A stretch of 64,000 nt of DNA from Escherichia coli (GCF_003790525.1 NZ_CP033635.1); one strand, 5' to 3'; shown: positions 8,646-60,826, counted from the first letter of the stretch. The notes: generated by a model not told the origin, from the letters alone. Program-made: numbers and translations.

Positions 8646-9899
8646 ATGTCAGGATCCAACACTGCAATCAGCCGTCGTCGTTTACTGCAAGGCGCGGGTG
8701 CCATGTGGCTATTGAGCGTAAGTCAGGTCAGCCTGGCTGCGGTCAGCCAGGTCGTGGCGGTGCGCGTCTGGCCTGCGTCCAGCTACACCCGCGTGACGGT
8801 AGAATCTAATCGTCAGCTGAAATATAAGCAGTTCGCGTTGAGTAATCCTGAACGCGTGGTGGTGGATATCGAAGATGTAAACCTGAACTCGGTGCTCAAG
8901 GGGATGGCTGCGCAAATCCGCGCTGACGACCCGTTCATCAAGTCGGCGCGCGTCGGGCAATTTGACCCGCAAACCGTACGTATGGTTTTTGAATTAAAGC
9001 AAAACGTAAAACCGCAGCTGTTTGCCCTTGCGCCGGTCGCCGGGTTTAAAGAGCGTCTGGTGATGGATCTCTATCCTGCCAATGCACAGGATATGCAGGA
9101 CCCGCTGCTGGCGCTGCTGGAGGATTACAACAAAGGCGACCTCGAAAAGCAGGTGCCGCCAGCACAAAGTGGTCCACAACCGGGTAAAGCTGGGCGGGAT
9201 CGTCCGATTGTCATTATGCTTGACCCTGGTCACGGTGGCGAAGACTCCGGTGCGGTGGGGAAATACAAAACACGCGAAAAAGACGTAGTATTGCAAATAG
9301 CTCGCCGTCTGCGCTCTCTGATCGAGAAAGAGGGCAATATGAAGGTGTACATGACGCGCAATGAAGACATCTTCATTCCGTTGCAAGTGCGCGTAGCAAA
9401 AGCCCAGAAACAGCGTGCTGACTTGTTTGTCTCTATCCATGCCGACGCCTTTACCAGTCGCCAGCCGAGCGGTTCCTCGGTGTTTGCGCTCTCAACCAAA
9501 GGCGCAACCAGTACTGCGGCAAAATATCTGGCACAAACCCAGAACGCCTCGGACTTGATTGGTGGCGTAAGCAAAAGCGGTGACCGCTATGTCGACCACA
9601 CTATGTTCGATATGGTGCAGTCGCTGACCATTGCTGACAGCCTGAAGTTTGGTAAAGCGGTGCTGAATAAGCTCGGTAAAATCAACAAGCTGCATAAAAA
9701 TCAAGTTGAACAGGCCGGGTTTGCCGTACTAAAGGCACCAGATATTCCCTCCATTCTGGTCGAAACGGCGTTTATCAGTAACGTTGAGGAAGAGCGTAAA
9801 CTGAAAACGGCGACTTTCCAGCAGGAAGTTGCGGAGTCTATTCTTGCGGGAATTAAAGCGTATTTTGCCGATGGGGCGACGCTGGCGAGAAGGGGATAA
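8646..9899 (+). CDS. amiC: N-acetylmuramoyl-L-alanine amidase AmiC (Tat-exported)
   Basis: 417 aa from [18 protein letters not shown] (twin-arginine signal), Amidase_3 domain; the ORF-track start 30 codons upstream is rejected. Confidence 0.9.
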
Positions 9900-9931
9900 T
9901 GTTTTTATTTATTCAATGAATTTATATTTCG

Positions 9932-9959
9932 TTGAATAGATAACATTTACCTGAATATT
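9932..9959 (+). promoter_or_regulatory. Putative sigma70 promoter of the PTS island operon (-35 TTGAAT, -10 AATATT, 16-bp spacer)
   Basis: Hexamer match read by eye in the AT-rich region upstream of the RAT/terminator leader; weak evidence. Confidence 0.25.
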
Positions 9960-9996
9960 AGACGCTGGTTTTGTGACTGATGTCGGATATTTGAAT

Positions 9997-10019
9997 GTCG
10001 GCTTGAAAAATAAGCCGAC
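9997..10019 (+). terminator. Hairpin gtcggctt-gaaaaat-aagccgac downstream of amiC (possible amiC terminator)
   Basis: 8-bp perfect stem seen in sequence; no strong U-tract follows. Confidence 0.3.
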
Positions 10020-10071
10020 CATCTCTTTAATTAAGCACAATTCCGTGTAATGTATACGCATTAGTTAATCA

Positions 10072-10099
10072 TCTTGTAACTGTTAAATCAGGCAAGGCA
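10072..10099 (+). promoter_or_regulatory. RAT-like element (ribonucleic antiterminator target) overlapping the 5' arm of the leader terminator
   Basis: cttgtaactgttaaatcaggcaaggca resembles the BglG/SacY RAT consensus as I recall it (TTGTTACTG..AAAGCAGGCAA); overlaps the terminator stem directly upstream of a PRD antiterminator gene. Confidence 0.5.
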
Positions 10100-10145
10100 A
10101 TGTTTGAAGTAATCATTACTTCTGACGTGCCTTGCCTTTTTTTTT
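10090..10145 (+). terminator. Rho-independent terminator in operon leader (10-bp stem aggcaaggca/tgccttgcct with inner stem gaagtaat/attacttc, then T9)
   Basis: Perfect inverted repeat followed by 9 T residues, ending 11 nt before the antiterminator ATG. Confidence 0.6.
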
Positions 10146-10156
10146 GGAGCCATGAA

Positions 10157-10981
10157 ATGATCATCGAAAAAGTCATGAACAATAATTGTGTACAGGCATC
10201 GATGAATGGACAGGAGGTTATCATTTCTGGGCCTGGCGTCGGTTACAACAAAAAATATGGAATGTCGGTCCCTGAGCATCCGGCTAACCGGATTTTTTAT
10301 GTCAGAAATGAACAAAAAAATAAACTCTACAAATTGATTGAACATGTGGATATTGAGTATGTTTTTGTTGCCGAAAAAATAGTGCAATATGCGGAGAACA
10401 ATCTCGAAAAAAATCTCAATCCATCGCTACTATTGATTCTTGCTGATCACATTTCGAATGCAATATCCCGAGTCGCTTCAGGCATACAAATTAATAATGT
10501 TTTCCTTGATGAAATCAAAGCGTTGTACAAAGCAGAGTATGCGATAAGTCGCGATGCATTAACTATCATTAATGAGCAATTCAGCGTTCAACTTCCTGAT
10601 GATGAGATTGGTTTTATAGCATTGCATATTTTAAATAATTATGAAAATTCAGTTGATTATGAATCAGTACGGATTATTGAGTTGTCGCAAATAATCACGG
10701 GGCTTATTGAAGTTGTTTATAACAGAAAGGTGGACAGAAGTTCATTTAATTATTCCAGGTTCATGATACACCTTAAATATTTTTCAAGTCGCGTATTATG
10801 TAATGAAAAGATAAAACAAAAAGATATTGGTGACATCTATGAGCAGTTTCTTGAGAAAGACATCCTGTTACAGCGCGCAATTCATGAAATTGAACGGTAT
10901 CTGTATGCCACTTTTAAATATGAATTAATTTTAGAAGAAAAACTATATCTCTCAATTCGTACCAAAGTATTAATGGACTAA
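10157..10981 (+). CDS. BglG/LicT-family PRD-domain transcription antiterminator
   Basis: 275 aa from ATG 10157 (MIIEKVMNNNCV..., GGAG 7 nt upstream); N-terminal CAT RNA-binding motif KVxNNN and PRD-like segments; the ORF-track start 10100 lies inside the terminator hairpin. Confidence 0.8.
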   Translation: MIIEKVMNNNCVQASMNGQEVIISGPGVGYNKKYGMSVPEHPANRIFYVRNEQKNKLYKLIEHVDIEYVFVAEKIVQYAENNLEKNLNPSLLLILADHISNAISRVASGIQINNVFLDEIKALYKAEYAISRDALTIINEQFSVQLPDDEIGFIALHILNNYENSVDYESVRIIELSQIITGLIEVVYNRKVDRSSFNYSRFMIHLKYFSSRVLCNEKIKQKDIGDIYEQFLEKDILLQRAIHEIERYLYATFKYELILEEKLYLSIRTKVLMD

Positions 10982-11012
10982 TTATATATAACATTTATAT
11001 GAGATAACCCAC

Positions 11013-12593
11013 ATGAAACAAAAGAAAGCCTGGAGTTTTTTTCAGAGCCTGGGAAAGGCATTCATGTATCCCATTGCTCTGCTAAGTGTATGTGGCATGA
11101 TGCTAGGGCTGGGAAGTGGTTTAGCCAGTGATGATATGGCAAAGTTAATTCCATTTCTGGCTATTCCAATAATTAAAACCATACTTGATTTCATTGTTAG
11201 TCTTGGTTTGTTTGCCTTTGTTAATTTACCTGTATTGTTTGCGATAGCGATTCCCTTAGGATTATTAAAAGATAAAGAGGATAAAGCCTATGGTGCTTTT
11301 TCTGGCTTAATTGGTTTTATGGCGATGCATCTGGGAACGAACTTTTATCTTAAACAGCACGACTTATTGGTCGCTGCTGACCAAATGTCGACACATGGGC
11401 AAACCATCATTCTGGGGATCCAGTCCTACAATACCAGCGTGTTAGGGGGAATTGTTGCTGGGTTATTAGTCGCCAGCATGTATAAAAAGATCGTTAATTT
11501 ACGCATTCCTGAATCATTAGGTTTTTATAGCGGCCCACGTCTGGTGCCTATCATTACACTGATTGTGATGAGTGGATTTGGTCTGATCATCCCTTTTATC
11601 TGGCCGCCGTTTTTCAATCTTTTCATGCTCATTGGCCACTGGATTTCAACTTCCGGTCCTGTTGGCTATTTTTTCTATGCAGTCGCCGAACGCGTGACGA
11701 TACCTTTTGGTTTAAATCACCTGGTGACGTCAGTTTTCCGCTTTACCCCCATCGGCGGATCGGCAGTGATCGGCGGCGAAGAGTATTATGGCACCCTGAA
11801 CATGTTTATGGCGTACGTCAAAGAGAATGCGGTCATTCCGCTGGATTTGGCGGGGAAAATGGAACAGGGCAAACTGATGATTCAGTATGGTCTGGCTGGT
11901 GCCGCGCTGGCGATGTATCGCACTGCTCATGCTCAAAACAGAAAAGCTATCAAAGCATTGCTTATTTCCGGGGTGCTTACAGTCATTATTGGCGGCGTCA
12001 GCGAACCGATTGAGTTTCTGTTCTTATTTGTCAGTCCACTGCTGTTTGTCTTCCATGCATTTATGAATGGATTCGCCAACATGGTCTTGCCATATATGGG
12101 CGTGAAGATGGGATTTACTGGCGATCTGATTCAATTTATTAGCTTTGGCGTATTGCGTGGCACAAGAACAGGTTGGCCAATAGCGGTGTGTGTCGAAGTG
12201 GCCTATTTCTTTATTTATTACTTTGTGTTCCGTTGGACTATTCTCAAATTTAACCTGATGACGGTAGGCCGTGAAGAGTCCAGTCCTGTCACGCTGAACG
12301 CTCATGAGGATACGGCTATAGCGGATATCCCAACTCCTGATAAATCAGAGCTGCAAGCGGCGGAGCAGATGGTTAAGGCACTTGGTGGTAAAGAGAATAT
12401 TAAGTCACTGGATAATTGCGTAACTCGTTTACGTTTAACAATCGCAGATATGGGATTGCTTGACGAGGCTGCAATAAAAAGAGCCGGCGGAATTGCGGTT
12501 GTTAAACTTGATCAAAATACCCTACAAGTCATTATCGGTACTAAAGTCATCGCCTTGCGTCGGGATATGGATAACTACATGGGGATATGCTGA
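11013..12593 (+). CDS. PTS glucose/glucoside-family EIICB permease (no EIIA domain)
   Basis: 526 aa polytopic membrane protein with C-terminal EIIB motif NCVTRLRL; similar in architecture to MalX/PtsG-type EIICB. Confidence 0.85.
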   Translation: MKQKKAWSFFQSLGKAFMYPIALLSVCGMMLGLGSGLASDDMAKLIPFLAIPIIKTILDFIVSLGLFAFVNLPVLFAIAIPLGLLKDKEDKAYGAFSGLIGFMAMHLGTNFYLKQHDLLVAADQMSTHGQTIILGIQSYNTSVLGGIVAGLLVASMYKKIVNLRIPESLGFYSGPRLVPIITLIVMSGFGLIIPFIWPPFFNLFMLIGHWISTSGPVGYFFYAVAERVTIPFGLNHLVTSVFRFTPIGGSAVIGGEEYYGTLNMFMAYVKENAVIPLDLAGKMEQGKLMIQYGLAGAALAMYRTAHAQNRKAIKALLISGVLTVIIGGVSEPIEFLFLFVSPLLFVFHAFMNGFANMVLPYMGVKMGFTGDLIQFISFGVLRGTRTGWPIAVCVEVAYFFIYYFVFRWTILKFNLMTVGREESSPVTLNAHEDTAIADIPTPDKSELQAAEQMVKALGGKENIKSLDNCVTRLRLTIADMGLLDEAAIKRAGGIAVVKLDQNTLQVIIGTKVIALRRDMDNYMGIC

Positions 12594-13768
12594 TGGATGT
12601 TTTTAATACTCCTATTTCCCGCAAAGGAACATATTGTACCCAATGGGACTTTTGCGAGGACAGATTTGGTGTAAAAGATGTATTACCATTCTCTATTTCA
12701 GATATGGATCTTCCGATACCAGACGCTATCACCAGAGCATTAAAAAAACGTCTGGAACACCCGATTTTAGGGTACAGCCGTTGGCAGCATGATGACTATC
12801 TGAATGCGATAGTCAATTGGTATCATCAACAATATAAAACTGAAATCAAACCAGAATGGATCACCTATAGCCCAAGCGTGATGTACTCCATTGCTAAAGC
12901 AATAGAGTTATTGACATCGCATGGTGATAATATTCTCGTTTTTACACCTGTCTATAATGCATTTTTTGATATAATTAAACATAGCGAGAGAAATATTCTG
13001 ACAGCCTCTTTGATTATAAAAAATGAGGGGGGCTACGCTATCAATTGGCAAGATTTTGATCTTAAGATTCAAAGCGCAAAGATGGTGTTATTATGTAATC
13101 CTCATAACCCGACAGGAACAGTCTGGTCGGAAGAAGAACTGCATAAAATCGCTGCAAGCTGTACAAGGCATAATGTCTGGTTATGTTCAGATGAAATCCA
13201 TAGTGATTTTGTTTTTAATCGTAGCTTTACATCCGCGCTTAAAATAAAAAAAGAAAAAGTAGTAGTATTTAACTCGATATCGAAAACATTTAATGTTCCT
13301 GCACTAACAGGATCGTATATGATTTCAACTGACGATAATTTTAATCATAAGTTCAGAACGATATCGAGGTATCGCGATTTTGTAAACTCCCCATCAGTAC
13401 TGAATATAATTGCAACTATTATTGCCTATAACGAATGTGAGGGATGGTTAAAGTCATTAAAGGCACATATTGCCTCTAACATTCAATTCACCCAGCAGTA
13501 TCTGAACGAAAACACTCCAGAATTGATCGTAAGGCCAGCTGATGGTTGCTATTTTTCGTGGATAGATTGCTCTGCTATTGGTTATCCCTTTGATGAATTC
13601 TACAGTCGATTAATTCATGAAGGCAAAGTGGGCATTATGGCGGGGAATGTCTATGGAACGGAGGGGGAGGGCTACCTTCGTCTGAACCTGGCCTGCGGTC
13701 GAGAAAAATTATATATGGGGCTTACGCGTCTTGCGAGTGTAATTAAAAATATTAATCAAGGAAAATAA
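12587..13768 (+). CDS. MalY/PatB-family PLP-dependent aminotransferase / C-S beta-lyase
   Basis: 393 aa; N-terminus (TYCTQWDF..LPFSISDMDLP) parallels E. coli MalY (GTWCTQWDY..LPFTISDMDF); overlaps the EIICB stop by 7 nt. Confidence 0.8.
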   Translation: MLMDVFNTPISRKGTYCTQWDFCEDRFGVKDVLPFSISDMDLPIPDAITRALKKRLEHPILGYSRWQHDDYLNAIVNWYHQQYKTEIKPEWITYSPSVMYSIAKAIELLTSHGDNILVFTPVYNAFFDIIKHSERNILTASLIIKNEGGYAINWQDFDLKIQSAKMVLLCNPHNPTGTVWSEEELHKIAASCTRHNVWLCSDEIHSDFVFNRSFTSALKIKKEKVVVFNSISKTFNVPALTGSYMISTDDNFNHKFRTISRYRDFVNSPSVLNIIATIIAYNECEGWLKSLKAHIASNIQFTQQYLNENTPELIVRPADGCYFSWIDCSAIGYPFDEFYSRLIHEGKVGIMAGNVYGTEGEGYLRLNLACGREKLYMGLTRLASVIKNINQGK

Positions 13769-13770
13769 AA

Positions 13771-14367
13771 ATGAACAGCACGGATCTTATCCATCTCATT
13801 AAACATTTTATGCGTAACGAACATAAAGCAGTTGAAGAAGTTATTGATTCCCCCCTTTCGGAGGTCGCAAATTTAATTAAAGTATTACAGTCTTGTCAGG
13901 GGAAAGTTGTTTTTATTGGTGTCGGTAAGTCCGGTATTATTGCCCGAAAACTCGCCGCAACATTTGCCAGCACTGGAACTCCCTCGTTTTTTGTTCACGG
14001 TACGGAAGCGGTACACGGCGACCTTGGAATGGTGGCGAAAGACGATGTTGTTATTCTTATTTCAAACAGTGGTGAGACGGCGGAAATCCTGGCGACACTG
14101 CCTAGTCTGAAAAAAATGGGTAATTATTTGATCTCTTTTACACGCAGTCATCACTCATCGCTTGCGATAAGTTGTGATTTATCCGTTGAAATTCCCGTAA
14201 AAAGTGAGGCGGATAATTTAGGTTTAGCGCCGTCATGCTCATCAACAGTCGTTCTGGTTGTTGGTGATGCGGTGGCGCTTGCGCTCTCCGAATTGAAAAA
14301 GTTTACTCGTGCTGATTTCGGCTTATATCATCCAGGAGGTGCGCTCGGTATTAAAGCAAACTCATAA
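13771..14367 (+). CDS. SIS-domain sugar-phosphate isomerase (single SIS domain, KdsD/GutQ-like)
   Basis: 198 aa with GVGKSGIIARKLAATFASTGTPSFFVH, the SIS phosphosugar-binding motif. Confidence 0.75.
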   Translation: MNSTDLIHLIKHFMRNEHKAVEEVIDSPLSEVANLIKVLQSCQGKVVFIGVGKSGIIARKLAATFASTGTPSFFVHGTEAVHGDLGMVAKDDVVILISNSGETAEILATLPSLKKMGNYLISFTRSHHSSLAISCDLSVEIPVKSEADNLGLAPSCSSTVVLVVGDAVALALSELKKFTRADFGLYHPGGALGIKANS

Positions 14368-14429
14368 TTTCAAAATATAAATACAGTAACCGGTCACGCC
14401 ATCTTTTGGGGTGGCGTTCTTTGAAGTGA

Positions 14430-15386
14430 GTGTCAGCTATGAAAAATGTTCTGGTCACCGTCCCCAGCTTTTCAGCACGCTGTGTTTCCGCCAGCAAGTT
14501 GCTAAGAGAGAATAATTTTAATCTTATTATTAAGAATAATGTGGAGCATCTGCTTAAATCAGAATCCACTGCATTACGAGAATCTATTTGCGCGGTCATC
14601 GCCGGAAAAGATTGTTATCAGGCGGACACGCTATCATTGCTGTCTGGTGTGAAAATAATATCGAGATTCGGGACGGGGATAGACAATATTGATCTTCGTG
14701 CGGCACAGCAATCCGGTATTGTTGTCAATAATGCGGTTGGGATTAATTCAAATGCGGTTGCGGAATTTATCATTGGACTTATCTTCGCGAGCATGAGAAA
14801 TATCCCCGGTAGCTATCATGCGATGCAAAATGGTTATTGGGGCGAGTCGCATGGCTGCGAGTTACAAGGTAAACGTATTGGCCTGCTTGGCTACGGCAAT
14901 ATTGGCAAAACACTGGCGAAAAGGTTATCTGGTTTTGATGTTGAGCTTTTAGCTTTTGACAAACAACCCGATTTCCAGGCCGCAGGCAAAGATGGAGTTC
15001 AGTTCGTATCAATTGAAGATATCTTTATGCAGTCTCATGTCATCATCGTTCTTTTGCCATTTTCTCCGGAGCTGGAGAACTTCATTAGTCATAAATATTT
15101 GTCGATGATGCGCAATGGTGCTCTGATCATCAACGCCGCAAGGGGAAAGTTGCTGGATGAGGGTGCTTTACTTCAGGTAATTGAAGAACGAAATGTTTTT
15201 GCAGCACTGGATGTGTTTAGCTCTGAACCGCTAGCGCAATTTAGCCCATTGCTACATGCCAAGAATATCATTACAACGCCGCATATTGCGGCCGCCACCG
15301 TTGAGTCATACCAGCAAACCGGGATATACGTTGCCCAGTCGATAATTGATTACTTCGCAGGAAGGGAGATAAAAAACGTGCTGTGA
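14430..15386 (+). CDS. D-isomer-specific 2-hydroxyacid dehydrogenase family protein (NAD-binding)
   Basis: 318 aa; Rossmann GxGxxG (LLGYGNIGK) and catalytic-domain motifs typical of the SerA/PdxB/GhrA family. Confidence 0.75.
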   Translation: MSAMKNVLVTVPSFSARCVSASKLLRENNFNLIIKNNVEHLLKSESTALRESICAVIAGKDCYQADTLSLLSGVKIISRFGTGIDNIDLRAAQQSGIVVNNAVGINSNAVAEFIIGLIFASMRNIPGSYHAMQNGYWGESHGCELQGKRIGLLGYGNIGKTLAKRLSGFDVELLAFDKQPDFQAAGKDGVQFVSIEDIFMQSHVIIVLLPFSPELENFISHKYLSMMRNGALIINAARGKLLDEGALLQVIEERNVFAALDVFSSEPLAQFSPLLHAKNIITTPHIAAATVESYQQTGIYVAQSIIDYFAGREIKNVL

Positions 15387-15410
15387 GTTCAGCTAAGGAA
15401 TATTTCAGGT

Positions 15411-15448
15411 ACAAAAAAACCGCAATTTGTGAAACACATTGCGGTTTA
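15411..15448 (-). terminator. Rho-independent terminator downstream of the tRNA-fMet cluster
   Basis: On the minus strand a hairpin accgcaatgtgtttcacaaattgcggt followed by TTTTTTT, directly 3' of the last tRNA. Confidence 0.6.
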
Positions 15449-15464
15449 TCAGCATCATAAGTGT

Positions 15465-15541
<77 letters not shown>

Positions 15542-15575: not shown

Positions 15576-15652
<77 letters not shown>

Positions 15653-15685: not shown

Positions 15686-15762
<77 letters not shown>

Positions 15763-56433: not shown

Positions 56434-57859
56434 TAATGCCAGTCAGTTAAGCAACTGACTGGCTCTTTTTCGGGGCTGTGGGGTATTTCCAGGGCCTCTC
56501 CTTTACCACTCTCGGGAAGGCCCTTTCCCTTCTTGTCGGTAATTTCACAAGTTGTCCCATACTTGCAAGATCGCGCATCAGCTCCGGTATACGTCCCGGT
56601 GAAGCGCCCTGCAATGTCATCAGCATTCTCATCACCATTCCACATGATTCTGAGAAACTCAGTTGATTCGGCCAGTAACCTTTCAGATATTCCGCCATTT
56701 TAATCATCTGATATCTCACCAGATTATAAGCCAGTAAGACACCCCACAGCTCTTGCTCCACAAGCTCCGGTTTTTTACTTCTCAGCGTCAGCCTGCTCAG
56801 TTGCATCGTCTGTTTTATCTCCCTGTATCCCAGTTCGATTTCCCAGCGATGACTGTACAGATCCGCCATTTCTCCTCCGGGGAAGCGCATGGCGTCCGTC
56901 ATCGACGTCAGCAGATGGCAGACTTTTCCTTTGCGCGTCACGGTCAGCAGGCGGGCTGTCACTTCATTTCCCAGTCCCGGCCACTTTTTTCGTGCCTGCG
57001 GGCTGGTTTTCAGCTTCACCAGATGATCGCCTTTACCCAGTTTTCTGATCTCTTCATATTGCGCTCCCTTTCTGAGAGGTATCATCCAGTGGCGGTGTTC
57101 TCCCGCCAGGCTCCAGGCATTTAACAGTCCCAGTGAGTAATAACCTTTATCCATTAACGTCAGAGTGTTATCGCCGGTTTGTTCTATAAGTTGCTCAGCA
57201 AGCTCATTTTCGCTGTTCTTCATCGTGCCGAAGGCTGCAGCCGTCAGCAGATGGCTGGTCAGTTCCATCTGGCAGACCATTTTGACCTGCGGGTAGAGCG
57301 CCGGGTTCCCGGCATGTGTCTGGCGGGGGAAGGCTGCATCGTTCTCTGGTGTATCCGGTGTGCGCCAGAACACACCATCGATGGCCAGCAGGGTCAGGCC
57401 GCACCAGTGCGGATGCGGCGTGGCGTTATGCCAGAGCTGCGCTGTTTTCGTGAACACGCGGCGGACAGCCTCACTTCCCAGGCGCTGGCGGGCCTGAATA
57501 ACGGCACTGGGGGCAACGAAGGGGCGATTGCCCGGCAGCATGATGTCCAGGCGATTCACAATCTGGTGAAGAGGTTCTTTACGCTCAAGCGCCATGCCAA
57601 CAATACACCAGACCATCATTTCGAGGGGAAGACGGCGCTTGCGTAGCGTTACAGTACCTGATTCGGCAAGGCAACGAGAGATGAGTTCGGGGTCGAGGTA
57701 ATCCCCCAGAGAAGTCAGTGGGTTACGCAGAGAATCGTAACGGGATACCAGATCAAGAGCCTGTCCAATGTGCATAAAAAAATCCGGAAACAAGTGAGCG
57801 TTTCCGGATTCTTACACAGCCACTGGATCGGTCAACTGATCCTTAACTGATCGGCATTA
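56434..57859 (-). mobile_element. IS4 insertion sequence (1426 bp) with imperfect 18-bp terminal inverted repeats
   Basis: Ends taatgccagtcagttaag ... cttaactgatcggcatta (16/18 complementary); encodes an IS4-family DDE transposase; flanked by a 14-bp direct repeat. Confidence 0.9.
56447..57775 (-). CDS. insG: IS4 transposase
   Basis: 442 aa from [31 protein letters not shown], which I recognise as the IS4 transposase N-terminus. Confidence 0.9.
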
Positions 57860-59932: not shown

Positions 59933-60826
59933 TTACCAGCGCCCGGAGGCGCCACCGCCGCCAGATGAACCGCCGCCGCCGCGGAAATTGTCATTGTCGA
60001 ATGAAGAGGATGACGATGACGAATAGTGGGAGGAAGAATTACTTCTTGTATGGCGTGATGGCTGGTTGGTATTACGCATCGAATCCCGAACCTTTTTGCC
60101 GAAGGGAGTAAAAGCGATGGCGACAGCCAGGAACGGTGTGGCGAAGCAGAGTAATGTTGCGAGCACTCCCCAGCTTCCGCTGAAACCTGCTATAGGTAAA
60201 ACAAAGGCCAGTACAATAGCTGCGAAGCAAATCAGTCCCAGCGTTTTGATATATCCTCTGGCAGAAATAAACGTCAGTATTATCGCCCAGACTAACAAAG
60301 CCCACCAACCGCTAAAGGGCAAAGGGTGATCGGTCGGTGTTATCGTTGCTGAATTATTCCCCGTCAGGCGACTTTCAATATCGTTGATCCCCTTTTGTAA
60401 ACCACCAGCCAGGTCGCCTTTTTTAAATGCCGGAATAATACTGTTGCGAATAATTTTCCCGGACTGTACATCCGTAATAATACCTTCCAGTCCGTAACCG
60501 ATTTCAATACGCACGGTATGATCCTGCCAGGCGACTAACAGTAGAACGCCATCATCGCGGTCTTTATCACCCGGTTTCCAGCTATCGAATACCCGCGTTG
60601 CGTACTGCTCGATGGTTTCATCGCCTGTTGTATCAACCACTAACACGACCAACTGTGCGTGGTTTTTTTGCGTCAGGGCTTTAATCTGGTTGGTCAGGGT
60701 GTTTACTTCGCTGTTTGTTAATGTGCCGGTTAAGTCATTCACATACTTGGGGGATTCAGGTACTGGAATTTGTGTGGCAAACACAGATGAACAGAAGAAA
60801 GCCATAAGGAAGATAAAATTTCGCAT
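59933..60826 (-). CDS. TPM-domain membrane protein, paralogue 1 (Ser-rich + Gly-rich tail ending GRW)
   Basis: 297 aa from ATG 60826 (MRNFIFLMAFFCSSVFA); TPM-like core (LTGTL..QLVVLVV..IEIGYGLEGI); tail [15 protein letters not shown]; 13 nt after the lemA stop. Confidence 0.75.
   Translation of the reverse strand: MRNFIFLMAFFCSSVFATQIPVPESPKYVNDLTGTLTNSEVNTLTNQIKALTQKNHAQLVVLVVDTTGDETIEQYATRVFDSWKPGDKDRDDGVLLLVAWQDHTVRIEIGYGLEGIITDVQSGKIIRNSIIPAFKKGDLAGGLQKGINDIESRLTGNNSATITPTDHPLPFSGWWALLVWAIILTFISARGYIKTLGLICFAAIVLAFVLPIAGFSGSWGVLATLLCFATPFLAVAIAFTPFGKKVRDSMRNTNQPSRHTRSNSSSHYSSSSSSSFDNDNFRGGGGSSGGGGASGRW

Follow-up and report, generated by a model that had tools for sequence, protein, structure and literature searches.

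The five-gene block between amiC and metV in Escherichia coli SMS-3-5 is very probably its copy of the paf phosphotransferase operon of uropathogenic strain CFT073

The 64-kb stretch of E. coli DNA analyzed here (the window) matches the chromosome of E. coli SMS-3-5 with 100% identity and contains, between amiC and the tRNA-fMet gene cluster, a 5.56-kb block (positions 9900-15464) of five co-directional open reading frames (ORFs) on the + strand. We consider it very probable that this block is the SMS-3-5 copy of the c3405-c3410 operon (pafR/pafP, or paf) of PAI-metV, the metV-associated pathogenicity island (PAI) of uropathogenic E. coli (UPEC) CFT073, and that it is a self-regulated uptake-and-catabolism cassette of the phosphotransferase system (PTS) for a glucose-family sugar or sugar conjugate. 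This locus had been described and in part characterized before and is not a discovery of the present analysis. An earlier note, made from the sequence alone, recognized no described pathway in these genes. This judgment stands insofar as the pathway is not a fully characterized one, but the note overlooked that the genes form a named, experimentally studied locus (CFT073 c3405-c3410, with pafR/pafP and c3406).

The identification rests on a direct comparison with CFT073, in which the five genes recur in unchanged order beside amiC. All five products (5/5) are 95.6-99.6% identical in amino acid sequence between the window and CFT073, with PafR at 98.2% and PafP at 99.6%, and the 257-nt leader is 98.8% identical. 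The fourth gene product, a 198-residue SIS-domain protein, differs at 4 of its 198 residues from the protein of PDB entries 5UQI/5VHU, the crystal structure of the c3406 product. In a published synteny survey, every UPEC strain examined had kept the segment from c3405 to c3410 of PAI-CFT073-metV, as had E2348 and SMS-3-5 itself; the survey's label for it is 'PTS system, maltose/glucose specific', and pafP serves as a marker of extraintestinal pathogenic E. coli (ExPEC). The window does not hold the full 32-kb island with its type VI secretion system (T6SS) cluster.

Deletion of c3405-c3410 reportedly attenuates CFT073 in mice, and deletion of c3406 alone is said not to do so. Reviews citing Baum et al. 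2014 state that pafR and pafP of the metV island are required to colonize the mouse bladder and kidney and that PafR is an antiterminator that is expressed in vivo and influences biofilm and motility genes. The c3406 product of CFT073 is reported by Mosberg et al. to be an arabinose-5-phosphate isomerase without CBS domains.

The block is set apart from its surroundings by composition. Its GC content is 40.6%, compared with about 53% in the flanks and 50.0% in the whole window; the GC profile dips to 0.31-0.45 over 9750-15250 versus 0.50-0.57 on either side, the leader and pafR region being 31-34% GC, and GC at third codon positions (GC3) is 0.34-0.46 in the five block genes versus 0.55-0.59 in recD, argA, amiC, and mltA. 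The first four genes are separated by 31, -1, and 2 nt, and 71 nt precede the fifth. The earlier note had described five co-directional genes of lower GC than the core flanks at this place; ORF and tRNA calls agree with its gene count, GC and GC3 with its view of composition, and the NCBIfam assignments (LicT/BglG PRD, MalX-like EIICB, PatB/MalY, KpsF/GutQ SIS, and D-2-hydroxyacid/phosphoglycerate dehydrogenase) with the families it had named. As the note had also supposed, the block is missing from K-12, where the amiC stop codon and metV are 73 bp apart; these 73 bases are unrelated, and divergence starts exactly at the amiC stop codon. The note had named two findings that would speak against it, namely the same genes in K-12 and a fully characterized pathway; the genes are not in K-12, and the pathway is not fully characterized.

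The cassette adjoins the tRNA cluster on the side of the metV 3' end, as the note had stated, with 78 nt between the operon end and metV and no T6SS genes in the window at that place. The note's remark that integrase and attachment (att) repeats are lacking was likewise borne out: the annotation shows no integrase from amiC to mltA, the block is not flanked by any meaningful direct or inverted repeat, and searches for a copy of the tRNA 3' end (21-nt and 14-nt queries, up to three mismatches) returned only chance-level matches outside the three tRNA genes and none on the amiC side. The block has the traits of a tRNA-associated island, namely a position at a tRNA 3' end, deviant GC, and variable presence, and lacks those of an integrase-mobilized island, namely an integrase and att direct repeats at the block.

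The leader of the operon contains the RNA elements expected of antiterminator control. A site resembling a ribonucleic antiterminator (RAT), TTGTAACTGTTAAATCAGGCAA, lies 83 nt upstream of the pafR start codon; no other RAT match occurs in the window, where chance alone would give 0. Its core and spacing are as in RAT1 and RAT2 of the K-12 bgl operon, each of which likewise overlaps a terminator. The leader terminator of the block has a folding energy (dG) of -31.5 kcal/mol (z = -4.74), and none of 200 shuffled sequences folded as well; a simple terminator scan overlooked it because its stem is bulged. The Rfam scan at E<=1 gave tRNAs only and no match to a RAT family.

The RAT is conserved in 11 related loci. 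The RAT and terminator occur at -83 nt in the divergent 'E. coli' E69, E. whittamii, Atlantibacter, two Citrobacter species, Enterococcus termitis, and a Firmicute metagenome-assembled genome, and at -81 nt in an Enterobacter. When 12 RATs were aligned, 91.7% of cells were paired, rising to 100% in the upper helix, where two of the three pairs show changes on both sides (G-C to A-U and U-A to C-G). The covariation score was reached by 0 of 500 shuffles, and all slid registers gave a lower fraction of paired cells and no pair with both-side changes. The RNAalifold consensus over nine loci recovers the terminator, with eight pairs maintained through both-side changes. Homology of the cassette in Atlantibacter and Citrobacter starts about 200-250 nt upstream of the regulator gene and ends near the stop codon of the dehydrogenase gene. 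We also observed a three-codon mini-ORF (ATG AAA TGA; window 10153-10161) that overlaps the pafR start codon (A-ATG-A). The sequence TTTGGAGCCATGAAATGA at the mini-ORF is invariant across Escherichia, Atlantibacter, and Citrobacter, which makes translational coupling or translational control possible.

The PafR ortholog matches the LicT model end to end (1-269 of 273, E = 7.8e-67) and aligns with CAT-PRD1 and PRD1-PRD2 structures in the PDB; its homologs carry Pfam CAT_RBD plus PRD. In a sequence alignment, His98 and His157 of PRD1 and His205 of PRD2 correspond to LicT His100, His159, and His207. The permease possesses the EIIB cysteine motif DNCVTRLR and no EIIA domain. It belongs to a sharply bounded subfamily in which identity is at least 60%, the next matches, ordinary MalX-type permeases, being at most 46% identical; members come from Enterobacterales, Enterococcus termitis (71%), Clostridioides difficile (68%), Clostridium, and Erysipelotrichaceae, with Enterococcus and Clostridium relatives at 63-71%. 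The lyase, a pyridoxal phosphate (PLP)-dependent enzyme of the MalY/PatB family, scores 368.8 bits against TIGR04350, above the cutoff of 340. Among solved structures, it comes closest to E. coli MalY (1D2F) and 4DGT, and its PLP lysine motif SISKTFN aligns with SGSKSFN of MalY.

The isomerase is matched by the KdsD/KpsF models in its SIS part only (profile positions 36-201 of 328), with all three models below their cutoffs. A MurQ-type etherase or a NagB-type deaminase, an idea suggested by the neighboring amiC and mltA, was rejected for this protein on match strength (1e-6 to 1e-7, versus 4e-58 for KdsD) and is also countered by its near-identity to the crystallized c3406 protein. The dehydrogenase matches TIGR01327 at 2e-62, below the cutoff; in the PDB, it is matched best by 3-phosphoglycerate dehydrogenases and glyoxylate reductases. 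It is a generic D-2-hydroxyacid dehydrogenase whose NAD motif, GYGNIG at residue 151, is intact.

MalX and MalY of K-12 are the best characterized relatives of the permease and the lyase, and this kinship, together with the maltose/glucose label given in the survey, would suit a system that is simply a second maltose/glucose PTS, the functional equivalent of K-12 malX-malY. We regard such equivalence as highly unlikely. The permease shares about 41.5% identity with E. coli MalX, falls below both MalX model cutoffs (538.8 versus 632.2 bits and 525.5 versus 665 bits), and its subfamily stands cleanly apart (at least 60% versus at most 46%). The regulator is an antiterminator rather than MalI, no LacI-type regulator gene is adjacent, and a SIS isomerase is always co-encoded. 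In addition, no in vitro inducing condition reportedly emerged from the work of Baum et al., according to a citing review. Orthology with MalX and MalY was rejected on the model cutoffs and identity.

The part played by the lyase is less clear-cut. K-12 MalY has a regulatory moonlighting role on MalT, and the MalY protein of the homologous C. difficile operon (CD3027-CD3031 of strain 630) is reported to act in vitro as a cysteine desulfhydrase and to be the product of the most biofilm-induced gene. Both observations speak for a MalY-like protein that is mainly a regulator or a general cysteine desulfhydrase and not a catabolic step, which we nevertheless consider unlikely. The lyase gene stays beside the permease and isomerase genes across two phyla, and the catalytic lysine is conserved. 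Moreover, some of those hosts are presumed to have no known MalT-type partner.

The RNA and protein parts of the classical Bgl/LicT logic are present in the block; the phosphorylation control, charging through Crr, and what the three enzymes do are inferred. Transcription would start upstream of the RAT and normally end at the leader terminator. The permease PafP would presumably be charged via the general EIIA-Glc (Crr): PafP has no EIIA of its own and three clostridial contexts encode a separate EIIA(Glc), so that use of Crr is probable for the enterobacterial version. During substrate transport, the sugar would receive the phosphate of PafP in place of PRD1 of PafR; dephosphorylated PafR would then bind the RAT hairpin and block the 5' arm of the terminator, resulting in read-through into pafR, pafP, and the genes for the MalY-like lyase, the CBS-less isomerase, and the 2-hydroxyacid dehydrogenase.

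On the most economical reading of the gene content, a glucose-family compound of monosaccharide size would be taken up and phosphorylated, after which the SIS protein would carry out an aldose-ketose isomerization, accompanied by a beta-elimination or transamination that depends on PLP; the 2-oxo or 2-hydroxy acid formed in this way would, in enterics, be reduced or oxidized by the dehydrogenase. No version of the operon that we examined encodes a glycosidase. We tentatively suggest that the four-gene core, which ExPEC, Atlantibacter, Citrobacter, Enterococcus, and C. difficile have in common, may by itself make up a whole pathway that breaks down a sugar-amino-acid or sugar-thiol conjugate from host or diet, with the lyase as a genuine step, although we would not call this probable. 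If true, it would explain the decades-old puzzle of MalX-type PTS permeases co-transcribed with a C-S lyase and would tie ExPEC urinary-tract fitness and the in vivo physiology of C. difficile to a single unrecognized nutrient.

Several observations weigh against the identification of the block as a self-regulated sugar uptake-and-catabolism cassette. The fourth LicT histidine, His269, is replaced by Arg268 here (and by Asn in BglG), so HPr-dependent activation may differ from that of LicT. No match to the sigma-70 consensus was found on the + strand over 9900-10073, in a scan that gave fewer matches than shuffled sequences. The arabinose-5-phosphate activity of the isomerase may be a side activity and not its role in the pathway. 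Deletion of the 32-kb PAI-metV gave no phenotype in zebrafish, the literature found on the locus names no substrate or inducing signal, and the reported lack of in vitro promoter induction mentioned above, given in a review citing Baum et al., is a difficulty here as well.

The operon is variably present in E. coli: 1689 of 5426 complete genomes (31%) carry it, and its alleles, 91.6-100% identical, form classes of at least 99%, 95-99%, and 90-95%. One of the 1691 places at which the operon was found is plasmid-borne. A partial match in NZ_CP172818.1 ('E. coli' HS-02, 4.50 Mb) covers 64% of the operon at 74.7% identity, with no annotated features beneath it, and is either a very divergent copy or comes from a mislabeled species.

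The direct operon-metV junction is found in 595 genomes, and in the remaining carriers (about 65%) the match ends 14 bases into the tRNA. In two such genomes examined, CFT073 and AVS0787, a T6SS cluster fills the gap to metV. The CFT073 T6SS module (record 3222388-3249589, about 27.2 kb) has a direct repeat of about 41 bp at both ends. This repeat, GGCCCCCGCAACCAATTTATTAGAATGCTGACAAACCGCAA, is present in CFT073 after intact metV (L019 9375-9415) and beside the operon (L004 24497-24537), and has a counterpart in AVS0787 (L002 26966-26980). It joins the final 14 bases of the tRNA to 27 bases of the terminator-metV spacer of T6SS-free, operon-bearing chromosomes. Because the repeat includes a spacer found only in operon-bearing chromosomes, the T6SS module entered later than the operon. 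Thus, judged from these junctions, the published 32-kb PAI-metV is composite, its two parts having been acquired independently, and SMS-3-5 shows the T6SS-free state.

Conversely, the SMS-3-5 block could be a remnant of the full 32-kb PAI-metV from which the T6SS was lost by recombination between the repeats of about 41 bp. The repeats exist, clean excision is feasible, and about 65% of carriers are without the direct junction, the T6SS lying in the gap in both CFT073 and AVS0787. We hold this to be quite improbable, as the T6SS-free layout is also seen in E. whittamii, in E69, and in Atlantibacter and is therefore the older state, and as the SMS-3-5 junction differs from the CFT073 repeat at several positions and so does not stem from a recent CFT073-like excision.

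Outside E. coli, the five genes occupy the same site, argA-amiC-[operon]-metZWV-mltA, in Atlantibacter hermannii (67-85% amino acid identity) and E. whittamii. The distal terminator hairpin is common to the window and Atlantibacter and is not found in Citrobacter. In two Citrobacter species, the five genes lie between fadE-yafV and tRNA-Asp-dnaQ (the aspV locus), at the tRNA-Asp 3' end (L008/L010 6145-11510), and an Enterobacter has the first four genes only, between nfo and fruA (L009 6142-10314); no integrase is present at the Citrobacter or Enterobacter sites. All Firmicutes contexts examined combine a CAT-PRD regulator, an EIICB, a MalY-type aminotransferase-fold enzyme, and a SIS protein of 195-199 residues, and three clostridial contexts additionally contain the EIIA(Glc) gene. 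In Enterobacter, Enterococcus, and the clostridia, the operon has no dehydrogenase gene. On this comparative evidence, the core is composed of four genes (antiterminator, EIICB, MalY-like lyase, and SIS isomerase), and the dehydrogenase appears as an enterobacterial add-on. The small hairpin preceding the dehydrogenase gene may mark the seam at which the fifth gene joined the four-gene core. This hairpin could, as a separate observation, be an internal attenuator.

The GC content of the operon is 11-12 points under that of the flanks in Escherichia, Atlantibacter, and Citrobacter and equals that of the host in four Firmicutes, which supports transfer from Firmicutes to Enterobacterales. Together, these features point to a probable old horizontal acquisition of the cassette, with a four-gene core of Firmicutes origin and no remaining mobility genes. 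The note's description of an 'old or degraded island' fits the occupation of the same site in A. hermannii and E. whittamii, with divergence that follows the flanks. A recent integrase-mediated insertion was rejected, there being no integrase or att site and the same site being occupied in other genera. A plasmid-borne origin was also rejected, as the plasmid search found no permease copy above 60% identity.

Between species, operon divergence follows that of the flanks: identities are 88-95% for the operon versus 92-94% for the flanks in E. whittamii and E69, and 68-77% versus 77-81% in Atlantibacter, as co-divergence followed by loss predicts. Nor was any mobility gene, att site, or plasmid copy found that would favor repeated import into E. 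coli lineages, whether by metV integration or by homologous recombination via amiC and mltA. Such import in place of vertical inheritance is a serious possibility, somewhat doubtful on balance. It would explain the patchy distribution of the operon, and it agrees with the separate allele classes and with the location of the cassette at aspV in Citrobacter and at nfo-fruA in Enterobacter. In E. coli 07_3722 (L021 4197-9425), moreover, the operon is 88-94% identical to that of SMS-3-5, compared with about 97% for argA, amiC, and mltA; an allele 5-9 points beyond its flanks suggests import by recombination from a divergent Escherichia lineage. Vertical co-divergence with loss and repeated import probably both contributed. 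In 07_3722, the MalY-like gene is also annotated as 33 nt longer, overlapping the SIS gene.

The features of the locus are collected in Table 1.

Table 1 Features of the amiC-metV region, in window coordinates
Feature	Position	Strand	Remarks
amiC	8646-9899		left neighbor of the block
Upstream/promoter region of the cassette	9900-10073	+	stands in place of the 73-bp amiC-metV spacer of K-12
Hairpin, may terminate amiC	9997-10019		within the upstream region
RAT hairpin, core TTGTAACTGTTAAATCAGGCAA at 10074-10095	10073-10096	+	predicted PRD antiterminator binding site
Intrinsic terminator, long stem and run of 9 T	10090-10145	+	5' arm overlaps the RAT 3' half
BglG/LicT-family PRD antiterminator, PafR ortholog	10157-10981	+	NCBIfam LicT 7.8e-67
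PTS EIICB permease, glucose family, MalX-like, PafP ortholog	11013-12593	+	TIGR02004 538.8 bits
MalY/PatB-family PLP-dependent C-S beta-lyase	12593-13768	+	TIGR04350 368.8 bits
CBS-less SIS-domain arabinose-5-phosphate isomerase, c3406 ortholog	13771-14367	+	near-identity to PDB 5UQI/5VHU
Small hairpin with T-rich tail, in the gap before the dehydrogenase gene	14396-14422	+	read from sequence
D-isomer-specific 2-hydroxyacid dehydrogenase, phosphoglycerate-dehydrogenase-like	14439-15386	+	TIGR01327 2e-62
Distal operon terminator hairpin facing metV	15417-15447		inverted repeat: 14-nt arms, 93% complementary, 3-nt loop
Spacer and first 14 bases of the metV 3' end	15439-15478		counterpart of the ~41-bp direct repeat of CFT073-type strains
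Three tRNA-Met(CAT) genes metV, metW, metZ (tRNA-fMet)	15465-15541, 15576-15652, 15686-15762	-	ARAGORN; Rfam tRNA 61.4 bits each

Elsewhere in the window, an IS4 transposase gene lies beside eno (56447-57793, - strand). A TPM-domain gene annotated as a truncated pseudogene (60155-60826) lies inside a LemA/TPM cluster near the IS4 gene, and genes for a LacI-family regulator and a sucrose-6-phosphate hydrolase (csc-type, accessory in E. coli; 62372-64000) stand beside queE and run off the window end.

The paf locus is an established ExPEC fitness determinant and, through pafP, an epidemiological marker. Within the literature found, descriptions of the locus do not include the conservation of the RAT, the four-gene core shared with C. 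difficile, or the composite nature of PAI-metV. The regulatory RNA, being defined and conserved, is usable as a reporter, and the same module in C. difficile (CD3027-CD3031) is strongly regulated in vivo and in biofilm, making substrate screens possible in two unrelated pathogens. The composite make-up of PAI-metV matters for reading the phenotypes of whole-island deletions.

We compared the block with the known systems that it most resembles. PAI-metV of CFT073 has the same genes, gene order, amiC side, and leader, and differs in the T6SS of about 27 kb between operon and metV, of which SMS-3-5 has none. With K-12 malI-malX-malY, the block shares an EIICB permease co-transcribed with a PLP-dependent C-S lyase of the same families; in contrast, it has an antiterminator where K-12 has a LacI-type repressor, it encodes an isomerase and a dehydrogenase besides, and the permeases are about 41.5% identical. 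KdsD, GutQ, and KpsF have a homologous SIS catalytic domain and catalyze the same reaction as that reported for c3406, whereas their tandem C-terminal CBS domains (total length about 320-330 residues) are absent here.

The regulatory layout is that of bglGFB and of B. subtilis LicT/SacY, in which a CAT-PRD1-PRD2 regulator is paired with a cognate PTS permease and the RAT overlaps a terminator; the RAT core is that of bgl RAT1/RAT2. Unlike those systems, the block has one RAT/terminator before the regulator gene and none in the 31-nt regulator-permease gap, its permease is of the glucose/maltose family and not the beta-glucoside family, and a phospho-glycosidase gene is absent. The C. difficile CD3027-CD3031 operon (EIIA, phosphosugar isomerase, malY, malX, and antiterminator) has the same four-gene core and order, a permease of 68% identity, and RAT/terminator control. 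It differs in having its own EIIA, no dehydrogenase, and a GC content equal to that of its host, and in carrying four tandem RAT-terminator units of about 104 nt before the permease gene, between the antiterminator gene and malX (L014 1177-1590), an arrangement that is a serial antitermination array and not a single checkpoint.

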